From a virus: DNA of 43,161 bases. The stretch lies in the UHGV virus genome UHGV-0191544. The stretch is one strand, 5' to 3'. Under the pieces are notes generated by a model, which saw only the letters and a program-made list of their open reading frames with translations, made no database searches and was not told the DNA's origin. A program made the translations under genes and the position numbers. This document shows, one piece after another, positions 3,676-41,175 of this stretch (positions within the stretch are counted from its first letter, which is position 1; each line of letters begins with the position of its first letter).

Positions 3676-4170
3676 TCACTCTCCTTTGATGCGAATGCCA
3701 GTGGTACTCATTCTCCTGATTTCCCAGAGCACACGAGGAATACCACCGTTTCCGACCGGATCGCGTTTACTCCGCAGGGCGACGCTTGATTCCGCCCAGC
3801 TTTTTCTTGGAGGAAGCTCTTTCACACGAACAAAACCAGCTGCGCGAAGAGATGCTCCTGATTCATCTGCCTGGGTGTACGTAATACAACGTTGATAACC
3901 CATAGCTTTTGCTGCCCGCCAGACAGCACCATAAAGCGCGCTGTTAGCGTTGCGTTCTCCTGTGGTACATGTGCGATTTACTTCAAGCGTTAATCCATCG
4001 TCCAAATGTCGTGCAACAGGTCGACCAGCTGTCGCCACACCTATCAATTCTCCGGCATTATTTCTCAGACCAATGCTGAATTTATGCCCCACTGGTGGTT
4101 TATTGTGTCGGTGGTGCTGTGCGATAAATTCCTGCGCCGCTTTCAGCGTTATAGGTGAAATGACCATCAC
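3676..4170 (-). CDS. Hypothetical protein, 164 aa
   Basis: ORF start overlaps upstream gene stop (ATGA); no family recognised. Confidence 0.55.
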   Translation of the reverse strand: MMVISPITLKAAQEFIAQHHRHNKPPVGHKFSIGLRNNAGELIGVATAGRPVARHLDDGLTLEVNRTCTTGERNANSALYGAVWRAAKAMGYQRCITYTQADESGASLRAAGFVRVKELPPRKSWAESSVALRSKRDPVGNGGIPRVLWEIRRMSTTGIRIKGE

Positions 4171-6279: not shown

Positions 6280-7159
6280 CCTCCAGTTTCGCTTTGCATT
6301 CTATGTAAATGGCTTGTACGTTCTGCTGCAATTTCATTCCAGATGTCAGGCGATATGCTTCTGCAAAATATCGCTTCAAATCATCCATGTTTTCTGCCTG
6401 AGCCATTTCATCGCAAAGAAGTTGTGCTTTATCCATTATTTCCTGCTGGCGTTTCCGTTCATCTTCGCGGATATCTTCCTCTGATTTGTGCGGCATAACT
6501 GGTTCCTGATGCACACCTTCATCTTCGTTAAGCAGGTGAATGGCATTATCCAGTCGCTGGGCTTTAGGCCAGTATTTGCTGGCGCGTTTAACTATTGTTT
6601 TACGCGCCATCTCTTCCCAGAATGTTTTCCACGGTCCATTCTTTGCCTTGCTCGTTGCTTCCACAGCTTTAATTTCTGCCAGACTCATTTCTTCAGTCAG
6701 GTAGTCACCATCTGCTGTTTTAACCGTGCAATAACCTCCAACAATAGAGCCTCGCTCACCAAATGCGTTGTATTTGTGGGTTGGTGCTGAATCAAGGCCA
6801 TTTGATTCATAGGTGTCGTTTGAGTACACCAGTTTGCATTGCCCCCACTTAATTGATCCTGTCGATTGCGCAAGATGAAGTAATCCCATGTAACTGATAT
6901 CAAGGCACACCATGCCGTCGCGAGGAACCAGATAAGCCAGTTTGCTGGCCGGGTTTAAGGTGATGCCGATCGCCGCAACATTGATGATGGCGTTCTGTGC
7001 GCTGGTTGGATTTGCCAGTGCTGTTTTAGCCAGGTAATCGTTTTTCTGGAAATACTGAATTGCAAACTGGCTTTCCTTAGCCCATGTCACCGTCTGTTCA
7101 GTCAATGCTCCGCAGAATAACTGCTCTTGCTGTTTAACGAATTCAACGATATTGCTCAT
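6257..7159 (-). CDS. recT: RecT-family single-strand annealing recombinase
   Basis: Motif GPWKTFWEEMARKT matches RecT signature GPWxTHWEEMAKKT; size about 300 aa. Confidence 0.8.
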   Translation of the reverse strand: MSNIVEFVKQQEQLFCGALTEQTVTWAKESQFAIQYFQKNDYLAKTALANPTSAQNAIINVAAIGITLNPASKLAYLVPRDGMVCLDISYMGLLHLAQSTGSIKWGQCKLVYSNDTYESNGLDSAPTHKYNAFGERGSIVGGYCTVKTADGDYLTEEMSLAEIKAVEATSKAKNGPWKTFWEEMARKTIVKRASKYWPKAQRLDNAIHLLNEDEGVHQEPVMPHKSEEDIREDERKRQQEIMDKAQLLCDEMAQAENMDDLKRYFAEAYRLTSGMKLQQNVQAIYIECKAKLEVASEQTV

Positions 7160-7467
7160 GCAGCTTCTCCATAAATATGTCTGCGTTTGAATATTGCGAA
7201 GGCATATTCAGCCTTAACTCTTTCGGTTATTGCATCCCAGAACCATTCAGCGGCTTTTTCCTGATAGTTACAGTCATCATCTTCCAGCCAGTCGATAGCG
7301 TCCTTAGTGTGTTCATCTGGTTTATATGATCGAAGCATTTCGCTTATTGGGTCGCAACGTTTGCAGAGGCGATCAACTTCACTGTTGATTCGTTCGTAAT
7401 CATCATCGGTAAAACTTGCGATGATTTGCGATATTTCACGCTTATCATTCAGAGTCAGAATCATCAT
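7156..7467 (-). CDS. Hypothetical acidic protein, 103 aa, immediately upstream of recT
   Basis: ORF overlaps recT start. Confidence 0.45.
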   Translation of the reverse strand: MMILTLNDKREISQIIASFTDDDYERINSEVDRLCKRCDPISEMLRSYKPDEHTKDAIDWLEDDDCNYQEKAAEWFWDAITERVKAEYAFAIFKRRHIYGEAA

Positions 7468-7548
7468 CTTTCTCCTGTTCTTTGTGCTGATTGAGCATTT
7501 CTTTCATCTGACGAATGAATTCTTCGTCTGACCAGTTATCTGTAAAAC

Positions 7549-7701
7549 TCATTTCCTGCGATACCACGGAAGGTTGATAGCTGATTTCATCGCTTTATTT
7601 GCTTCAAGCCACATTTTGGAATCACCAATAAATCTGGCTATTACTGCTTTGTTCTGTGCAGCACGAAGCATCTGGTGATTAATGGCTATTTCATTGCGCA
7701 T
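7549..7701 (-). CDS. kil: Kil-like host-killing protein, 50 aa
   Basis: Hand-translated MRNEIAINHQMLRAAQNKAVIARFIGDSKMW...; IATFIGDEKM-like motif recalled for lambda Kil; overlaps cIII stop. Confidence 0.45.
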   Translation of the reverse strand: MRNEIAINHQMLRAAQNKAVIARFIGDSKMWLEANKAMKSAINLPWYRRK

Positions 7702-7820
7702 AACGCCTCCAGTTGTTTCTTTGCTGCTCTGATTAATTGTTTAACTCGGCGCGATAATTCAGATTCGTGCGGGTAGAAAGCGGACATGACGCCGCTACCC
7801 GCGAGCTGAAAGTGCATCAT
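7686..7820 (-). CDS. cIII: CIII-like protein, 44 aa
   Basis: Hand-translated MMHFQLAGSGVMSAFYPHESELSRRVKQLIRAAKKQLEAL; resembles lambda CIII helix; GGAG SD. Confidence 0.55.
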   Translation of the reverse strand: MMHFQLAGSGVMSAFYPHESELSRRVKQLIRAAKKQLEALCAMK

Positions 7821-7903
7821 GGGTAACTCCTTATATTTGATTGCATAACGAAAACGCCTCAAGTGAAGCGTTATTGGTATGCGGTAAAGCCGCGCTCAGG
7901 CGG

Positions 7904-8152
7904 CTACTCTATTTCTTCTTCGAATGATTTTATTAGTCGGTCAATAACATCATCTGTTTCAATATCATTTCCGTCTGATTGCTTTAATACGTCTATTGAT
8001 TCTGCGGCGGTAAATTCCATCGCTGTGAGAAACTCGACAATTGCACACTCAACGACATATCGTTCTTCATCTGTACGGCATGATATAAAAGAGCATTTAA
8101 TTGCTGTTATTACTTTTTGTTTAAGTTCTGCAGGATAATCAGTTTTTATCAT
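7904..8152 (-). CDS. Small acidic protein, 82 aa
   Basis: ORF immediately downstream of intrinsic terminator; rich in Asp/Glu. Confidence 0.5.
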   Translation of the reverse strand: MIKTDYPAELKQKVITAIKCSFISCRTDEERYVVECAIVEFLTAMEFTAAESIDVLKQSDGNDIETDDVIDRLIKSFEEEIE

Positions 8153-8165
8153 CGTTCACTCTGTC

Positions 8166-8191
8166 AAAAAAACGCCCTCACATCGGAGGGC
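8166..8191 (-). terminator. Intrinsic terminator inside the early-left operon (tL1-like)
   Basis: Minus strand GCCCTC-CGATGT-GAGGGC followed by seven T; approx coordinates. Confidence 0.6.
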
Positions 8192-8325
8192 AAAGAAGAT
8201 TTCCAACAATCAGAACAAGTCGGCTCCTGTTTAGTTACGAGCGACATTGCTCCGTGTATTCACTCGTTGGAATGAATACACAGTGCAGTGTTTATTCTGT
8301 TGTTTATGCCAAAAATAAAGGCCGA

Positions 8326-8964
8326 CTATGCGGCCTCGGAAGGAAGTCCAATCATCTTATTCAAATCCTCTACCCGTAAAGCAGGAAGTGCTGTACTTGC
8401 TTTATCTGCTTCTTTTGGTAGCAATTCTTTGCTTTCAGGCCAAACTTCAATGAGTCGCTTAACTGTTGTGACTGAGTTTAAAGCAGCCCATACATTTGAT
8501 TCGATATCCTTTTTCTTGGCTTCAAGTTTTTGTTGTAATGCGCAGATTTCATCAAACCTTTTTGTTATTTCGTGCTCTGCGTCAAACATGCATTTATCTT
8601 TTATCGGAGTAGGGAGAAATATATCTTCGCCGTTGCCGTCTTTCCCATATGAATGCCATCCAACCCTTCTGCCAGATACAGTCAGATAAATTGAAGTAGA
8701 ACGAAAATCGTATGAGTAAAATGAACATCCCATCTTTCCAAGTTCTTCACTTATAGCTACCAACTTGGATGATAACTGTTCCACTTCCTCAGTTTTCTTT
8801 TTACCGCCAAACGCAATAACTCTGGCGTCAAGTGCAAGCTGGTTCTTTAACTTTGTTACTTCTTCAAGCTCAGTGAAAACCCCAGACTTAATTAAAGCGT
8901 TACGAGCGATTTCCTCTTTCATTCTCGTAGTTAAGCGGATTGATGACATATTAATTCCTCTCAA
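8326..8964 (-). CDS. Hypothetical protein, 212 aa (possibly starting at internal Met, about 207 aa)
   Basis: ORF between N and first terminator; no family recognised. Confidence 0.5.
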   Translation of the reverse strand: MRGINMSSIRLTTRMKEEIARNALIKSGVFTELEEVTKLKNQLALDARVIAFGGKKKTEEVEQLSSKLVAISEELGKMGCSFYSYDFRSTSIYLTVSGRRVGWHSYGKDGNGEDIFLPTPIKDKCMFDAEHEITKRFDEICALQQKLEAKKKDIESNVWAALNSVTTVKRLIEVWPESKELLPKEADKASTALPALRVEDLNKMIGLPSEAA

Positions 8965-8985
8965 ATAAGAAAATAAAGGCCACCA

Positions 8986-9186
8986 TCAGGCAGCCTTGTT
9001 ATTCTGTTTACCAAGTTCTCTGGCAGTCATTGCCGTCGTTCGTATTGCCCATTTATCGACATATTTCCCATCTTCCATTACAGGAAACATTTCTTCAGGC
9101 TTAACCATGCATTCCGATTGCAGCTTGCATCCATTGCATCGCTTGAATTGTCCACACCATTGATTTGTATCAATAGTCGTAGTCAT
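8986..9186 (-). CDS. Small Cys-rich protein, 66 aa, possible zinc ribbon
   Basis: Cysteines at positions 11, 17, 20, 26; ORF directly downstream of N. Confidence 0.4.
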   Translation of the reverse strand: MTTTIDTNQWCGQFKRCNGCKLQSECMVKPEEMFPVMEDGKYVDKWAIRTTAMTARELGKQNNKAA

Positions 9187-9264
9187 ACGGATAGTCCTGG
9201 TATTGTTCCATCACATCCTGAGGATGCTCTTCGAACTCTTCAGATTCTTCTTCCATATCTCACC

Positions 9265-9564
9265 TCAAATAAGTGGTTTGCTGCCTAATTTAATTTTCTG
9301 GCGACCAACACAAGTCACCCCCATTTCACTGCGTGGCTTGCGGTAGTAAATACGGTTCTGTTTACGCTCGACTTCATCTGCCTTCTTGCAGAGAAGGCTT
9401 CCGAGTGATGCTACTTTGTCTGCTCTGACGCAACCAGAGAGCTTTAGCGCAATTTTTCGCGCCAGTCGCTGCTCTTGCATCGCCTGTTCACGTTGAGCCT
9501 GTCTGCGTGCTCTGCGGCGATTTCTGGCGTTATCGTCAGCCAGATATGTAATGACTACTGTCAT
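9265..9564 (-). CDS. N: N-type transcription antiterminator
   Basis: N-terminal arginine-rich motif NARNRRRARRQAQREQA; first gene after PL/nutL. Confidence 0.7.
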   Translation of the reverse strand: MTVVITYLADDNARNRRRARRQAQREQAMQEQRLARKIALKLSGCVRADKVASLGSLLCKKADEVERKQNRIYYRKPRSEMGVTCVGRQKIKLGSKPLI

Positions 9565-9964
9565 GTTGACCTCCGATGAAACAACTTTGGAATTTTTTTT
9601 ATTACAAAGTGGTTTCCTTCCCCGCCAATTAGACGGGGATGGAAGAGCATTTATGAGCCTTCATGGACTCTGCTCGATCAGTTCTATTTAATTAATCTCT
9701 CAACTGAATGTAAGTATTCACATAAATCCTCCTACCTCTTGTGCAGCTTTCTTGAATATGGTGGCGGCTGCATAACGCCTATGGAATTGACTTTGGCGAT
9801 TGGATGGCCGGTGCTGAACTCCGGCTTACTGGTTAGAGCGCCCGCACTACCAGTGACGCTGTCTTGAGGCGCAGATTGGTTACTGCTTGCCATGAGCGCT
9901 GTTTATACATTGGTCGAGCATCAGCCTGCTCATTCATCCAATCCCAAAGCCAACTACTCTTTGG

Positions 9965-10007
9965 TTCCCGCATTTCGGCGGGACAATCCCATCAATGTTA
10001 AAGAGCC
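9965..10007 (-). promoter_or_regulatory. nutL: boxA-like GGCTCTTTAA plus boxB hairpin GTCCCGCCGAAATGCGGGA
   Basis: boxB is near-identical to the nutR hairpin; lies just downstream of OL on the leftward transcript; approx coordinates. Confidence 0.55.
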
Positions 10008-10054
10008 TGCCAATCTGTTCCGTTTGGCTTCCAGCGTCCTGCTGATGGCTAAAG

Positions 10055-10139
10055 AATACTGTAGGTATTTTATTGTGTAAATACCCAAGGTATTTATTTT
10101 TGATGAAATAACGATAAGCAAATGAATACAAAGGATATT
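10055..10139. promoter_or_regulatory. OL/PL region with three AATAC-N5-GTATT operator sites
   Basis: Sites at about 10055-10069, 10080-10094, 10125-10139 (third has one mismatch); same motif as OR. Confidence 0.55.
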
Positions 10140-10225
10140 TATTTTTTCGGTGTCTGCTTGTTCAGTGCTTTTTATGCGGGATATGTGAAGTGGATCCCGA
10201 TAGCTATTGCTGCCGGGATTATAGG

Positions 10226-10594
10226 TTAGTCAGCGAAGGTTAAGACGAGAATTACCTTAATGATGTCTGCTACAACAGACACGGCCATAGATAAACCAAA
10301 GACGATCCAAGCCACAGTGATGTCTTCACTACCATCGTATATAGTTCCGTAATCACTGGTGTAAGGCGTAAATGTCGCGCCTTGATACAATAGGTATAAG
10401 CTTGATCCATAGAGGATAAATGCAGATATCCCTTGTATTGCTATGATCACCAGAATCATGAAACGAGCTGATCTATGCGCCCAAGCCTGGCTTATTTTTT
10501 CTGATAGAGATTTCGCAATAAAAGCATGCGCTAAGCCGTAAATTGTCGAGATTGCCAACATCCCAAAAAAGCTTGCTATAGCGGTTCCAACCAT
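10226..10594 (-). CDS. Polytopic membrane protein, about 122 aa, co-transcribed with cI (rex/sieB position)
   Basis: Track ORF 10226..10615 overlaps cI stop; likely ATG at 10594 with AAGGGG SD; 3-4 hydrophobic helices. Confidence 0.6.
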   Translation of the reverse strand: MVGTAIASFFGMLAISTIYGLAHAFIAKSLSEKISQAWAHRSARFMILVIIAIQGISAFILYGSSLYLLYQGATFTPYTSDYGTIYDGSEDITVAWIVFGLSMAVSVVADIIKVILVLTFAD

Positions 10595-10611
10595 AATCGC
10601 CCCTTGCGTGA

Positions 10612-11328
10612 TCAAACCAGCCTTAGTTTTGTCTCAATTGCAACGCCTATAATCTTGCAGTTTCCATTGATTGGCACGAGAGGCCATGCAGGATTAAGTC
10701 CCTTGAGGTATTTATTTCCGCCGTCGATTATCAGCTTCTTGAATGTTGCTTCGTTAGAGTCAGAAAGTTTTGCTATGACCAAGCTGCCGTTGATCGCCTC
10801 CCTTCCGGTATCGAAAAGAACGAATGTTCCCTCTGGAATGCTTAACCCAACCGGTGCCGTCATTGAATCACCTTCCACTTTAAGCCAGAACGCATTACCT
10901 TGAATATGCGCGTCAGACTCAAGCCAAACATCTATGTCTTTAATGGTGTATGGTTCGCATGCTTCACACCACGAGCCAGCCTGGATACTGCTTAACACCG
11001 GATACCTCTTTCCTGCTCTGTATTCCCCTGCATACCTTACGTTGGCATCGCTCTTAAGGCTTTCTGCCTGTTCTGCAACCTTGGCAGCAATTGACTGGCT
11101 AAAATCAGCAATTGAGACTTGCAACAGCCGTGCAAAACCAGATGCAACCTCAACGTTTAGCGCGTTTCTGCCATTAAGATAATGCCCTACCGCTCCTTGG
11201 GTGATACCCAGTTCATCAGCGATTGAGTATTGGGTTATTCCCAATTCTTTCTTTTTTGACTCATACAAAGCCTTAAGCCGCTTAGCGTCTTCGAGCTGTT
11301 CTGTCGTCAGTGATTTTTTATTTTCCAT
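10612..11328 (-). CDS. cI: CI-type prophage repressor (HTH plus LexA-like S24 peptidase domain)
   Basis: Closely resembles lambda CI (LTQEQLEDARRLKAIY..., FWLEVEGNSMTAP...) as recalled. Confidence 0.9.
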   Translation of the reverse strand: MENKKSLTTEQLEDAKRLKALYESKKKELGITQYSIADELGITQGAVGHYLNGRNALNVEVASGFARLLQVSIADFSQSIAAKVAEQAESLKSDANVRYAGEYRAGKRYPVLSSIQAGSWCEACEPYTIKDIDVWLESDAHIQGNAFWLKVEGDSMTAPVGLSIPEGTFVLFDTGREAINGSLVIAKLSDSNEATFKKLIIDGGNKYLKGLNPAWPLVPINGNCKIIGVAIETKLRLV

Positions 11329-11339
11329 AGCTTAATTCT

Positions 11340-11403
11340 AATAGCTAAGGTACTTAAACTAAAAATACCCTGAGTATTGATTGCTTTGAATACCTGTAGT
11401 ATT
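11340..11403. promoter_or_regulatory. OR region with three operator sites between cI and cro (PRM/PR)
   Basis: AATAG-N5-GTACT (11340-54), AATAC-N5-GTATT (11364-78), AATAC-N5-GTATT (11389-403); spacing 24-25 bp. Confidence 0.6.
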
Positions 11404-11428
11404 CTTTGTTCATGGTTAATAACGGAGA

Positions 11429-11629
11429 GTGCATATGATTCGAATGACACTTGCCGATTACGCCAAAATCCATGGACAGGCTAAAGCAGCCAGTGACTTT
11501 GGTGTAATCCAGTGCGCTATCAGCAAGGCCATTCTGGCAGGCCGTAACATTATGGTTACGGTAAAGCCTGATGGCAGTGTGATTGGAGAGGAAGTTCGTC
11601 CTTTCCCAAGCAACAAGAAAAACAAATAG
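11429..11629 (+). CDS. cro: Cro repressor
   Basis: Resembles lambda Cro ([38 protein letters not shown]...) as recalled. Confidence 0.85.
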
Positions 11630-21395: not shown

Positions 21396-21678
21396 CCATT
21401 CCAAAGCCCATCTACGGGTGGGCTTGATAATGAAACCGGAATTTATTCTGGGCAACCAGTTACGGCAGCACCACGAAACAACCCAAGCCAGTAAGTGGGA
21501 AAATAACACTGGCAGCCACTGAAAGATGAACCTCCAGCCTTATGGCAAAAAAGATTCTTTGTGGTGGCGGACTGATGGAAAGACATCGGATAGAATAAAA
21601 CAGTGGCTAGGGTAGCTCCCGAAAAGCGGACTCGTCACCGCCTGCCACTGAATCTATGGCGAACAACTAGACGAGGTT

Positions 21679-33147: not shown

Positions 33148-34536
33148 ATGGCTACTTGGCAAGGATCAAATGGCGGATTGTTGGCTGGTATCGGCGGTGT
33201 CAACTCAAACGCTCCGAGCGTAAATGACATCGGCAATACGCTTCAGCTTATCAGGCAGAACAATGATATTGAGCGTTCAGGCGCTAACAATGTTGGGCTG
33301 ACTGCTTTGCAAGGCCTTTCAGGTATTGCGGGGGTGTTTCAGCAGGAAAAGCAGGCTCAGCGGCAGAAAGAATTTCAGCAGGCATACGCTAATGCTTATG
33401 CGTCTGGTGATCGCGGTGCTTTGCGTCAGTTGGCTACTCAATATCCAGACCAGATTGAATCCGTTCGTAAAGGCATGGGATTCATTGATGAAGACCAGCG
33501 CAATTCTATCGGCACCTTAGCGGCTGGCGCTCGTCTTGCGGCATCGTCTCCAGAAGCAATGCAATCATGGCTGCAAAACAACGCCAAGGAACTGACTCGC
33601 GTCGGTGTTGACCCTAACAACGTTGCTCAGATGTATCAGCAGAATCCTTCAGGATTTGGTGAGTTTGTTGATCACCTTGGGATGGCTGCGCTTGGTCCGA
33701 TTGATTACTTCAATGTTCAGGACAAGATGGCTGGTCGTGAGATTGATCGCGGAAAACTTGCAGAGACAATCCGCAGCAATCAGGCTGGCGAGGCGCTAAC
33801 AGCACGAGGCCAGAACATCACGATGCGCGGTCAGGACTTATCTGCTTCTACTGCGCGACGCGGGCAGGATTTGGCAATGCAGCGAGCGTCAACAAGAGGA
33901 ACCGCTGGGAATGATGAGCGTACAGTTCAGTTATCAGATGGCAGAACTGTAACGGTAGGCGGGAAACTTCACGGCGCTGGGGCTAATGCGTTCTACGAAG
34001 GCATCGACAACGAGGGGAATATGGTTCGCGTTCCTGCCAGTTCAATCGCAGCGCCTGCAACATCGTCTGCATCAGCACAAAACTATGCCATGAAGAAGGA
34101 TATCGACGCGATCGCAAATGCAGACGCTTCTGCTCTCGATTTCATGACAGGAATGACAGGCGGTGCAGGTAATCCAGCAATTGGTGCTGATGTTCGCAGC
34201 CGATTAACAGGAAAAGAGCAGCGCCAGTTATATAACTCAGCACAACGTATTCAGGGCAGAATGCAGAATCAGGGTGTGGCGGCAGCAAGGGACATGGGTG
34301 CCAGTGGTATTAACACCGTTGCAGAAGCGAAGATGTATTTTCAGGGGATGCCGCAGGTTGACTATTCAAGCCCGGAGGCTATGCAGCAGTCGATTCGTGA
34401 GATTCAGGAATACACCAACAATTACAACCAACAATATAACGTTAATGTTGGTAAATCTCAGCGGCAGCAATCTCAACCTGCACAGGTATCACAGCCAGCA
34501 GCCAGCAGTAACTTTTCTTCACTATGGGGTGATTAA
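33148..34536 (+). CDS. Ejection protein (P22 gp20-like)
   Basis: 462 aa; position. Confidence 0.7.
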
Positions 34537-41024: not shown

Positions 41025-41039
41025 ATGGTGTCCCCTGCA
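41025..41039. repeat. att core, right copy, forming the 3' end of the tRNA
   Basis: Exact 15-bp match to 794..808. Confidence 0.65.
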
Positions 41040-41099
41040 GGAATCGAACCTGCAATTAGCCCTTAGGAGGGGCTCGTTATATCCATTTAACTAAGAGGA
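41025..41099 (-). tRNA. argW: tRNA-Arg (anticodon CCU)
   Basis: Reverse complement reads GTCCTCTTAGTTAAATGGATATAACGAGCCCCTCCTAAGGGCTAATTGCAGGTTCGATTCCTGCAGGGGACACCA. Confidence 0.9.
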
Positions 41100-41175
41100 C
41101 AATGCGGCATGAGTATACCCGCTAATGGACTGCGGGGTAAGTACGCTGCCGCTCGATTGCTTAAACCCTCGCCAT

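Follow-up and report, generated by a model that had tools for sequence, protein, structure and literature searches.

The stretch of DNA analysed here, UHGV virus genome UHGV-0191544 (43,161 nucleotides; hereafter the window), is that of a P22-like/lambdoid mosaic phage or prophage, with a cI-like repressor gene at 10612-11328 on the minus strand, cro and cII on the plus strand, P22-type portal, coat and tailspike genes, and an integrase gene that adjoins a tRNA gene. Our subject is the segment between an N-like antiterminator gene and cIII, a part of the early leftward (pL) operon; this operon runs on the minus strand, and features are on that strand unless stated otherwise. In the direction of transcription the order is N, orf28/ral, a hairpin at the ral stop codon, an Nmad5 cassette, a spacer that holds the small RNA (sRNA) PreS and the terminator tL2a, the gene for an acidic protein of 82 amino acids (aa) that we call p82, two hairpins, cIII and kil, and a RecT recombination module follows beyond kil. 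The upstream boundary is the N-like gene (9265..9564, 99 aa), which matches phrog_271 (E 3.7e-35), scores 19.7 bits with Pfam N_peptide, under that model's cut-off, and has a 3' end unrelated to lambda N (11/30 identities); the downstream boundary is cIII (7686..7862; PF08134, E 4e-30), with kil after it (7549-7701; PF06301, E 2e-20). We consider it quite likely that this stretch is the 'ral accessory region' of a lambda-type pL operon in a P22-like mosaic phage, each module of which has already been catalogued.

Three open reading frames (ORFs), at 8986-9186, 8326-8964 and 7904-8152, had been flagged in an earlier reading of the sequence (the original prediction) as immediate-early accessory genes, and all three are present as claimed. 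The first, described as an unassigned 66-aa protein with four cysteines and a possible zinc ribbon, is the restriction alleviation gene ral (8986..9186): its product matches PF11058 over residues 1-66 of 66 at 158.8 bits (cut-off 25) and phrog_1055 at E 3e-48, and 64 of the 66 residues (97%) are identical to lambda Ral. The four cysteines are indeed there (C11, C17, C20 and C26), in the pattern CX5CX2CX5C. Ahead of ral lies a gene that the original prediction had overlooked, a homologue of lambda orf28 (9170..9256) that overlaps the ral start in the same arrangement as in lambda, carries a strong Shine-Dalgarno sequence (GAGGTGA) and encodes a 28-aa peptide, MEEESEEFEEHPQDVMEQYQDYPYDYDY, with a net charge of -12 and 27/28 residues identical to the lambda peptide. 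The N stop codon (9265-9267) ends 8 nt ahead of the orf28 ATG (9256), and across orf28-ral (8970-9256) the DNA is identical to lambda at 281 of 287 positions. In lambda, Ral accelerates the methylation of the first strand by Type IA enzymes, and its gene becomes conditionally essential where the host has an active Type I system; because of the 97% identity, Ral of the window can safely be expected to alleviate Type IA (EcoKI/EcoBI) restriction in the same way, by boosting modification. In phage ECP1 (L002, 2424-2770), orf28 and PreS are intact and ral is internally deleted.

The spacer beyond the Nmad5 gene (8166-8323) is 96.8% identical (153/158) to the spacer between ral and ea10 in lambda. 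The lambda spacer encodes the Hfq-dependent sRNA LPR1/PreS, ~88 nt long and processed to ~68 nt, which has its 3' end at tL2a, is made in the lytic cycle and raises translation of the host dnaN gene by pairing upstream of its ribosome-binding site (bioRxiv 10.1101/2024.10.31.621285). The window carries an orthologue of ~88 nt (8166..8253) that ends in the tL2a hairpin and U-tail and is identical to lambda PreS at 84 of 88 positions (95.5%) with no gaps, within the range by which its discoverers called LPR1 conserved (at least 92% identity to lambda and no more than 3 gaps). Two blocks of the sRNA, AAAUCUUCUUUG and UGUUCUGAUU(G), are complementary in silico (RNAduplex) to the E. coli K-12 dnaA-dnaN junction; lambda has the same two blocks, and the sole substitution inside them, A47G, yields a G.U pair. 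From the 95.5% identity and the retained complementarity to the dnaN leader we infer that PreS of the window acts as in lambda, through Hfq binding and dnaN upregulation. A search of Rfam gave no family matching the PreS region. The intrinsic terminator that the original prediction had placed at about 8166-8191 is present as a hairpin and U-tract at 8173-8192, and it doubles as the 3' end of this known regulatory sRNA.

Although this terminator had been taken for the first after N, two other hairpin/U-tract sites precede it. The first (8976..8997) is a 9-bp hairpin (-13.9 kcal/mol, z -3.55) that holds the ral UGA in its loop and is followed by a U-rich tract; the second (8318..8337, -11.0 kcal/mol) stands with its U-tract at the Nmad5 stop; the tL2a hairpin, followed by seven U, comes third. 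Across 6500-11500 the scan returned 8 terminator-like sites against 4.8 +/- 1.9 in shuffled sequence, a modest enrichment of ~1.7-fold, and between the predicted sigma-70-like pL promoter (10053-10081) and ral it found none. The lambda counterpart of the ral-stop hairpin has two mismatches and forms no stable hairpin. Two A->G differences from lambda (34,070-34,095) complete the 9-bp stem over the ral stop codon, and the window may thereby have gained a predicted terminator directly after ral, the formation of which could be influenced by ral translation because the stop codon sits in the loop. Two further hairpins lie between p82 and cIII (7853..7905) in sequence that is identical at 51 of 54 positions to the ea10-cIII spacer of lambda; the second (7853-7872) carries a U-tract, and both are common to the lambda spacer. 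The pair is probably a tL2b-type site.

This layout bears on expression timing. Transcription of orf28-ral in the absence of N is plausible, since the gap between N and orf28-ral is too short to hold a terminator and the sequence upstream has no predicted one. Nmad5, which is behind one predicted terminator, likely depends on N for its expression, and p82, which is behind three, probably does so as well. Hence the earlier proposal that the 66-aa and 212-aa genes are both made without N is plausible for ral and is put in doubt for Nmad5 by the ral-stop hairpin.

The second flagged gene, said to encode a 212-aa protein of no recognised family, belongs to the Nmad5 family (PF18757), as evidenced by a score of 239.9 bits (cut-off 27; E 4e-71) in which residues 9-208 cover positions 1-206 of the 206-position profile. 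The ORF caller placed its start at a TTG (8964, 212 aa); the probable start is the ATG at 8949, which is favoured by a GAGAGGA Shine-Dalgarno sequence and by the resulting length of 207 aa, as in homologues (8326..8949). The gene occupies a 658-bp insertion at the 3' hairpin of ral, and homology to lambda breaks exactly at its borders. These borders are marked by a 12-bp direct repeat, GGCCTTTATTTT, with a promoter-proximal copy at 8970..8981 and a distal copy at 8312..8323, where lambda homology resumes; two copies occur in the window against 0.01 expected, and lambda has a single copy at the junction of ral and the intergenic spacer. Each copy forms the descending arm and U-tract of a hairpin, and the insertion looks like a moron-type cassette joined at the terminator hairpin. 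Members of the family are found in 379 phage records (among them lambdoid, Stx, N4-like and Dhillonvirus phages and M6-like Pseudomonas phages), and the protein of the window is 95-99% identical to copies in E. coli prophages and phages. The family takes its name from gene neighbourhood alone. DpdA-like and Mom-like genes lie 4-7 kb downstream of Nmad5 in the same operon, and these are found independently of Nmad5 in other phages. An obligatory linkage between Nmad5 and the DpdA-like gene is not supported: HK106 has a DpdA-like gene without Nmad5, and in the stretches viewed mEp235 and Kapi1 have Nmad5 without annotated modification genes.

The third flagged gene (7904..8152) encodes p82, which is as strongly acidic as had been claimed (net charge -11, isoelectric point (pI) 4.27) and 100% identical to HK446 AFH20664.1. 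Homology to lambda ends near its start codon and resumes right past its stop; across the gene the DNA identity to lambda is at random level (109/249), and its GC content is 34.5%, compared with 47.6% for the window. The gene thus replaces lambda ea10 exactly, and its product is unrelated to Ea10. The slot ahead of cIII varies in content: lambda carries ea10 there, E. coli 23CRST025 an ORF of 138 aa, and a further locus (L012) a p82 homologue that has an HNH gene as its neighbour. A profile search recovered 42 relatives of p82, and an exhaustive profile search, run over 1.84 billion representatives, returned 32 clusters only, all of stand-alone proteins of 43-100 aa, with no domain fusions or remote relatives. 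The family (phrog_14587) is found only in phages of Enterobacterales, and its aligned members are all acidic (net charge -8 to -20, median -14). Its genes stand in the pre-cIII slot in lambdoid phages; in Saltrevirus-type phages they open an operon that looks early and also carries ParB-like and methyltransferase genes; and in L008, L009 and L014, which represent three unrelated groups of phages, they come directly after a primase/helicase gene. The AlphaFold2 model of p82 is a four-helix bundle (predicted local distance difference test score (pLDDT) 90.6) with no catalytic motif. A Foldseek search of this model against the PDB gave nothing at E <= 0.001, and a Pfam scan of 37 family members gave no match to Ocr (PF08684), ArdA (PF07275) or any other family even at E <= 5. 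The four-helix model is thus a confident one that has no informative structural match.

Taken together, the region is mostly ordinary, in that ral, orf28, tL2a and PreS are lambda features and Nmad5 and p82 are catalogued families set in an uncommon mosaic. The pieces are common singly: of 5426 complete E. coli genomes, 2269 hold parts of the 7700-9700 interval, and so do 392 phage records. At least 80% of it occurs as a single block in only one of the 5426 genomes and in no phage record. 'Ral' accessory regions rank among the top variable regions of enterobacterial phages (Silas et al. 2023).

We propose the following working of the region. Transcripts from pL would run through N straight into orf28-ral, because the sieB/tL1 segment of lambda is missing from the sequence, and Ral would speed de novo methylation of phage DNA by EcoKI-type Type IA restriction-modification enzymes. 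Without N, transcription would end in steps, first at the hairpin of ral, next at that of Nmad5 and then at tL2a; in the presence of N it would read through, making Nmad5 and p82 delayed-early products. Transcripts ending or processed at tL2a would yield PreS, which, by analogy with lambda, would bind Hfq and raise translation of host dnaN. Finally, the acidic p82 might bind or inhibit, stoichiometrically, a host protein that itself binds nucleic acid, and Nmad5 might act as a non-enzymatic helical adaptor.

Several points weigh against this account. The ral-stop and Nmad5-stop hairpins are predictions from a class of hits only ~1.7-fold over shuffles, and Rho-dependent termination is outside the reach of such prediction. 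The function of PreS is drawn from its identity to the lambda sRNA, and its pairing blocks from RNAduplex. Fold searches for Nmad5 and p82 were uninformative as to the proposed roles, and the only functional screen to include p82 lists no phenotype for it (Silas et al. 2023). In that screen the identical protein from HK446 (AFH20664.1, orf194/UDP0194) was among 200 synthesised accessory genes, and UDP0194 is absent from the genes that triggered cell death or sensitised the tested phage-host pairs; the assays covered 196 of the 200 genes, and UDP0194 expression was not verified.

The family's compact, confidently modelled acidic four-helix bundle, its stand-alone occurrence throughout, and its recurrence both after a primase/helicase gene and in the lambdoid pre-cIII slot would fit a protein that inhibits or hijacks a host or defence protein outside the published screen, such as a nuclease or sensor absent from the ECOR panel, or a replication or repair factor. 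Neighbouring cassettes of the accessory region have defence phenotypes of their own (Ral; orf184, which triggers gop-beta-cII). The evidence here is that of position and composition, and no phenotype was reported for the protein over 45 phage-host combinations. We give this explanation somewhat less than an even chance. At a similarly tentative level, the most likely role that we can name for the acidic p82 is to bind or inhibit, stoichiometrically, a nucleic-acid-binding protein of the host.

For Nmad5 we consider a non-enzymatic helical adaptor that binds protein or nucleic acid most likely, with low confidence. Another possibility is an accessory, non-enzymatic role for Nmad5 in which it would act on defence sensing by the host, either by triggering or modulating Tmn-like systems or as a counter-defence factor. 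A single K->E change in Nmad5 of a Dhillonvirus leads to escape from Tmn, and its reversion restores sensitivity. In an alignment with a Dhillonvirus homologue of 254 aa, the residue concerned (K216 there) falls at K164-R165 of the protein of the window, a nearly invariant pair ahead of LIEVWPE, on the assumption that the published Tmn phage is numbered like Oekolampad. The moron-like spread of the gene over temperate and virulent phages is consistent with such a role. Against this, the observation comes from one study of a distant homologue that shares 33% identity over the C-terminal half only; deletion of the gene did not abolish Tmn sensitivity in the Dhillonvirus; and a search with padloc defence models and NCBIfam gave no match for Nmad5, nor for Ral, p82, orf28 or the 129-aa membrane protein described below. 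We regard this role as possible though doubtful.

Unlikely in our estimate is the conjunction in which p82 represents a new class of stoichiometric inhibitor, aimed at a host protein of defence or DNA metabolism that was absent from the ECOR-based screen, and Nmad5 takes a non-enzymatic part in Tmn-type defence sensing. If both were true, a stretch of 1.3 kb would hold three to four independent host-manipulating functions (Ral, PreS, Nmad5 and p82).

Participation of Nmad5 in covalent modification of phage DNA or nucleotides, perhaps together with the DpdA-like and Mom-like genes and to anti-restriction effect, would fit the position of the gene in several phages. The family was named after its association with nucleotide-modification genes, the gene lies within a thymidine hypermodification cassette in M6-like phages and after thymidylate synthase in an N4-like phage, and the pL operon of the window also encodes the DpdA-like (phrog_887, E 1e-102) and Mom-like (phrog_1384, E 1e-43) proteins. 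However, the gene moves alone: here it forms the 658-bp cassette, SPN3UB has it in the nin region, and in Dhillonvirus it is placed among structural genes. HK106, mEp235 and Kapi1, as described above, likewise have one of the two without the other. In the Dhillonvirus, moreover, deletion of nmad5 left Tmn sensitivity unchanged, and modification was not demonstrated there. We therefore hold a modification role for Nmad5 to be improbable, and keep to the helical adaptor.

The original prediction suggested that the 82-aa protein could be a DNA mimic, and an anti-restriction protein of the Ocr/ArdA kind would fit its strong acidity, a property conserved across the family, its low-GC cassette within the ral accessory region, and the place of its homologues in virulent siphophages of Salmonella and Klebsiella, where they come first in an operon that looks early. 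The label of PHROG 14587, 'anti-restriction protein', appears to favour the same role. However, the GenBank record of ECP1 names the 82-aa gene 'antirestriction protein ral', although the true ral is the internally deleted remnant just upstream; the PHROG label most likely traces to this misannotated entry, and we found no experimental basis for it. Acidity aside, the family shows none of the Pfam matches, and p82 none of the structural matches, that resemblance to Ocr, ArdA or another known mimic fold would bring. With unmodified lambda on MG1655, the genes that scored in each of the three replicates were ardA, ral and ocr alone (Silas et al. 2023); that UDP0194 did not score there weakens an Ocr-like role against EcoKI, and the gene is not among the validated counter-defence genes either. 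We hold a DNA mimic to be improbable, and retain a stoichiometric binder or inhibitor for p82. The slot is a lambdoid counter-defence slot, as had been proposed, and contains ral; the anti-restriction reading, extended earlier to the whole set of genes, holds for ral only. Two further identities for p82 were rejected, namely a diverged or truncated Ea10 (DUF2528; hhalign probability 0.05%) and an Im7-like colicin DNase immunity protein (marginal profile hits at E 0.15-1, out of register and with no fold support).

Other parts of the window gave observations of their own. In the distal pL operon, the DpdA-like gene (1365-2165) encodes a 266-aa protein whose phrog_887 match carries the label 'queuine tRNA-ribosyltransferase'; it shares 98.9% identity with HK106_029 and ~43% with a gene of Pantoea phage MED16 that bears the same annotation, has no Pfam match at 1e-3 and no PDB sequence match, and is a candidate DpdA-type enzyme for inserting a 7-deazaguanine base into phage DNA. 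The Mom-like gene (3676-4170, 164 aa) matches phrog_1384, 'Mom-like DNA modification protein', and scores 24.2 bits with Pfam Mom against a threshold of 27.1; because only the N-terminal ~60% of the profiles is covered, this gene may be truncated. The operon may carry several modification-based anti-restriction functions (ral, DpdA-like and Mom-like). Directly downstream of the cI-like repressor gene, at the position of lambda rexA/rexB, a gene at 10226-10615 encodes a 129-aa protein (phrog_6534) that appears by eye to be a multi-pass membrane protein and had no defence-model match; it is a candidate for an exclusion gene expressed in the lysogen. Between it and the pL-like promoter, on the plus strand and antisense, lies a 35-aa hydrophobic ORF, MNTKDIYFFGVCLFSAFYAGYVKWIPIAIAAGIIG (10122-10229). 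The leader from the pL-like promoter to the N start codon (9565-10052) is unusually long at ~480 nt, and holds a boxA-like element, CGCTCTAAC, followed by a hairpin at ~9815-9845 and a second hairpin near 9620-9640. Farther off, Rfam int-alpA RNA is matched on the plus strand at 21600-21662 (45.3 bits, gathering threshold 35.8) in the middle of the rightward operon, and the tRNA gene adjoining the integrase gene (41029-41100) is probably the attachment site.

The proteins flagged as unknown immediate-early factors thus resolve into a textbook lambda module, made up of Ral, orf28, tL2a and PreS, an sRNA described only recently, with two mobile cassettes, a re-reading that spares experimental effort and corrects an annotation error in phrog_14587. 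The remaining novelty is in the functions of p82 and Nmad5. Both cassettes are cleanly bounded, both proteins have confident structure models, and counter-defence genes are already known to cluster in the slot. The Nmad5 insertion, in addition, illustrates that lambdoid modules can recombine with a terminator hairpin as the joint between them.

Comparison with known systems places each part of the region. Ocr and ArdA are small, very acidic proteins of phage and plasmid early or leading regions, and p82 and orf28 share with them charge and early-operon position; p82 is without sequence or fold similarity to either, so that the likeness is of the loosest sense only. Much closer are the p82 cassettes of HK446, ECP1 and Kapi1, which encode proteins 99-100% identical to p82 of the window at the same site between the PreS terminator and cIII. 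Their neighbours differ from those of the window in two of these phages: in ECP1 ral is deleted and there is no Nmad5, whereas in Kapi1 Nmad5 is present and a Nun-like gene stands in place of ral. With the known members of the Nmad5 family (mEp235 gp37, Kapi1_018, the Stx-phage copies and Dhillonvirus nmad5) the protein of the window compares as a full-length Pfam match, although the Dhillonvirus protein, in which the Tmn-escape mutation arose, shares only the C-terminal half with it. Unlike the gene of M6-like phages, which is embedded in a thymidine hypermodification cassette, Nmad5 of the window has no adjacent nucleotide-modification enzymes.

The closest known system to the region as a whole is the orf28-ral-PreS/tL2a-ea10 segment of lambda (lambda 33,536-34,357). 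The orf28 peptide and Ral are near-identical in the two (27/28 and 64/66 residues) and their genes overlap alike, the 158-bp PreS/tL2a spacer is conserved at 96.8%, and the spacer hairpins ahead of cIII are 94% identical to those of lambda between ea10 and cIII. The segment between N and orf28 in lambda, which holds sieB and tL1, is absent from the window; the ral-stop hairpin, not formed in lambda, is completed in the window by the two A->G changes; lambda is without the 658-bp Nmad5 cassette; and where lambda has ea10 (DUF2528), the window has the unrelated p82. Around these exchanges the gene order relative to N and to cIII/kil is the same in both.

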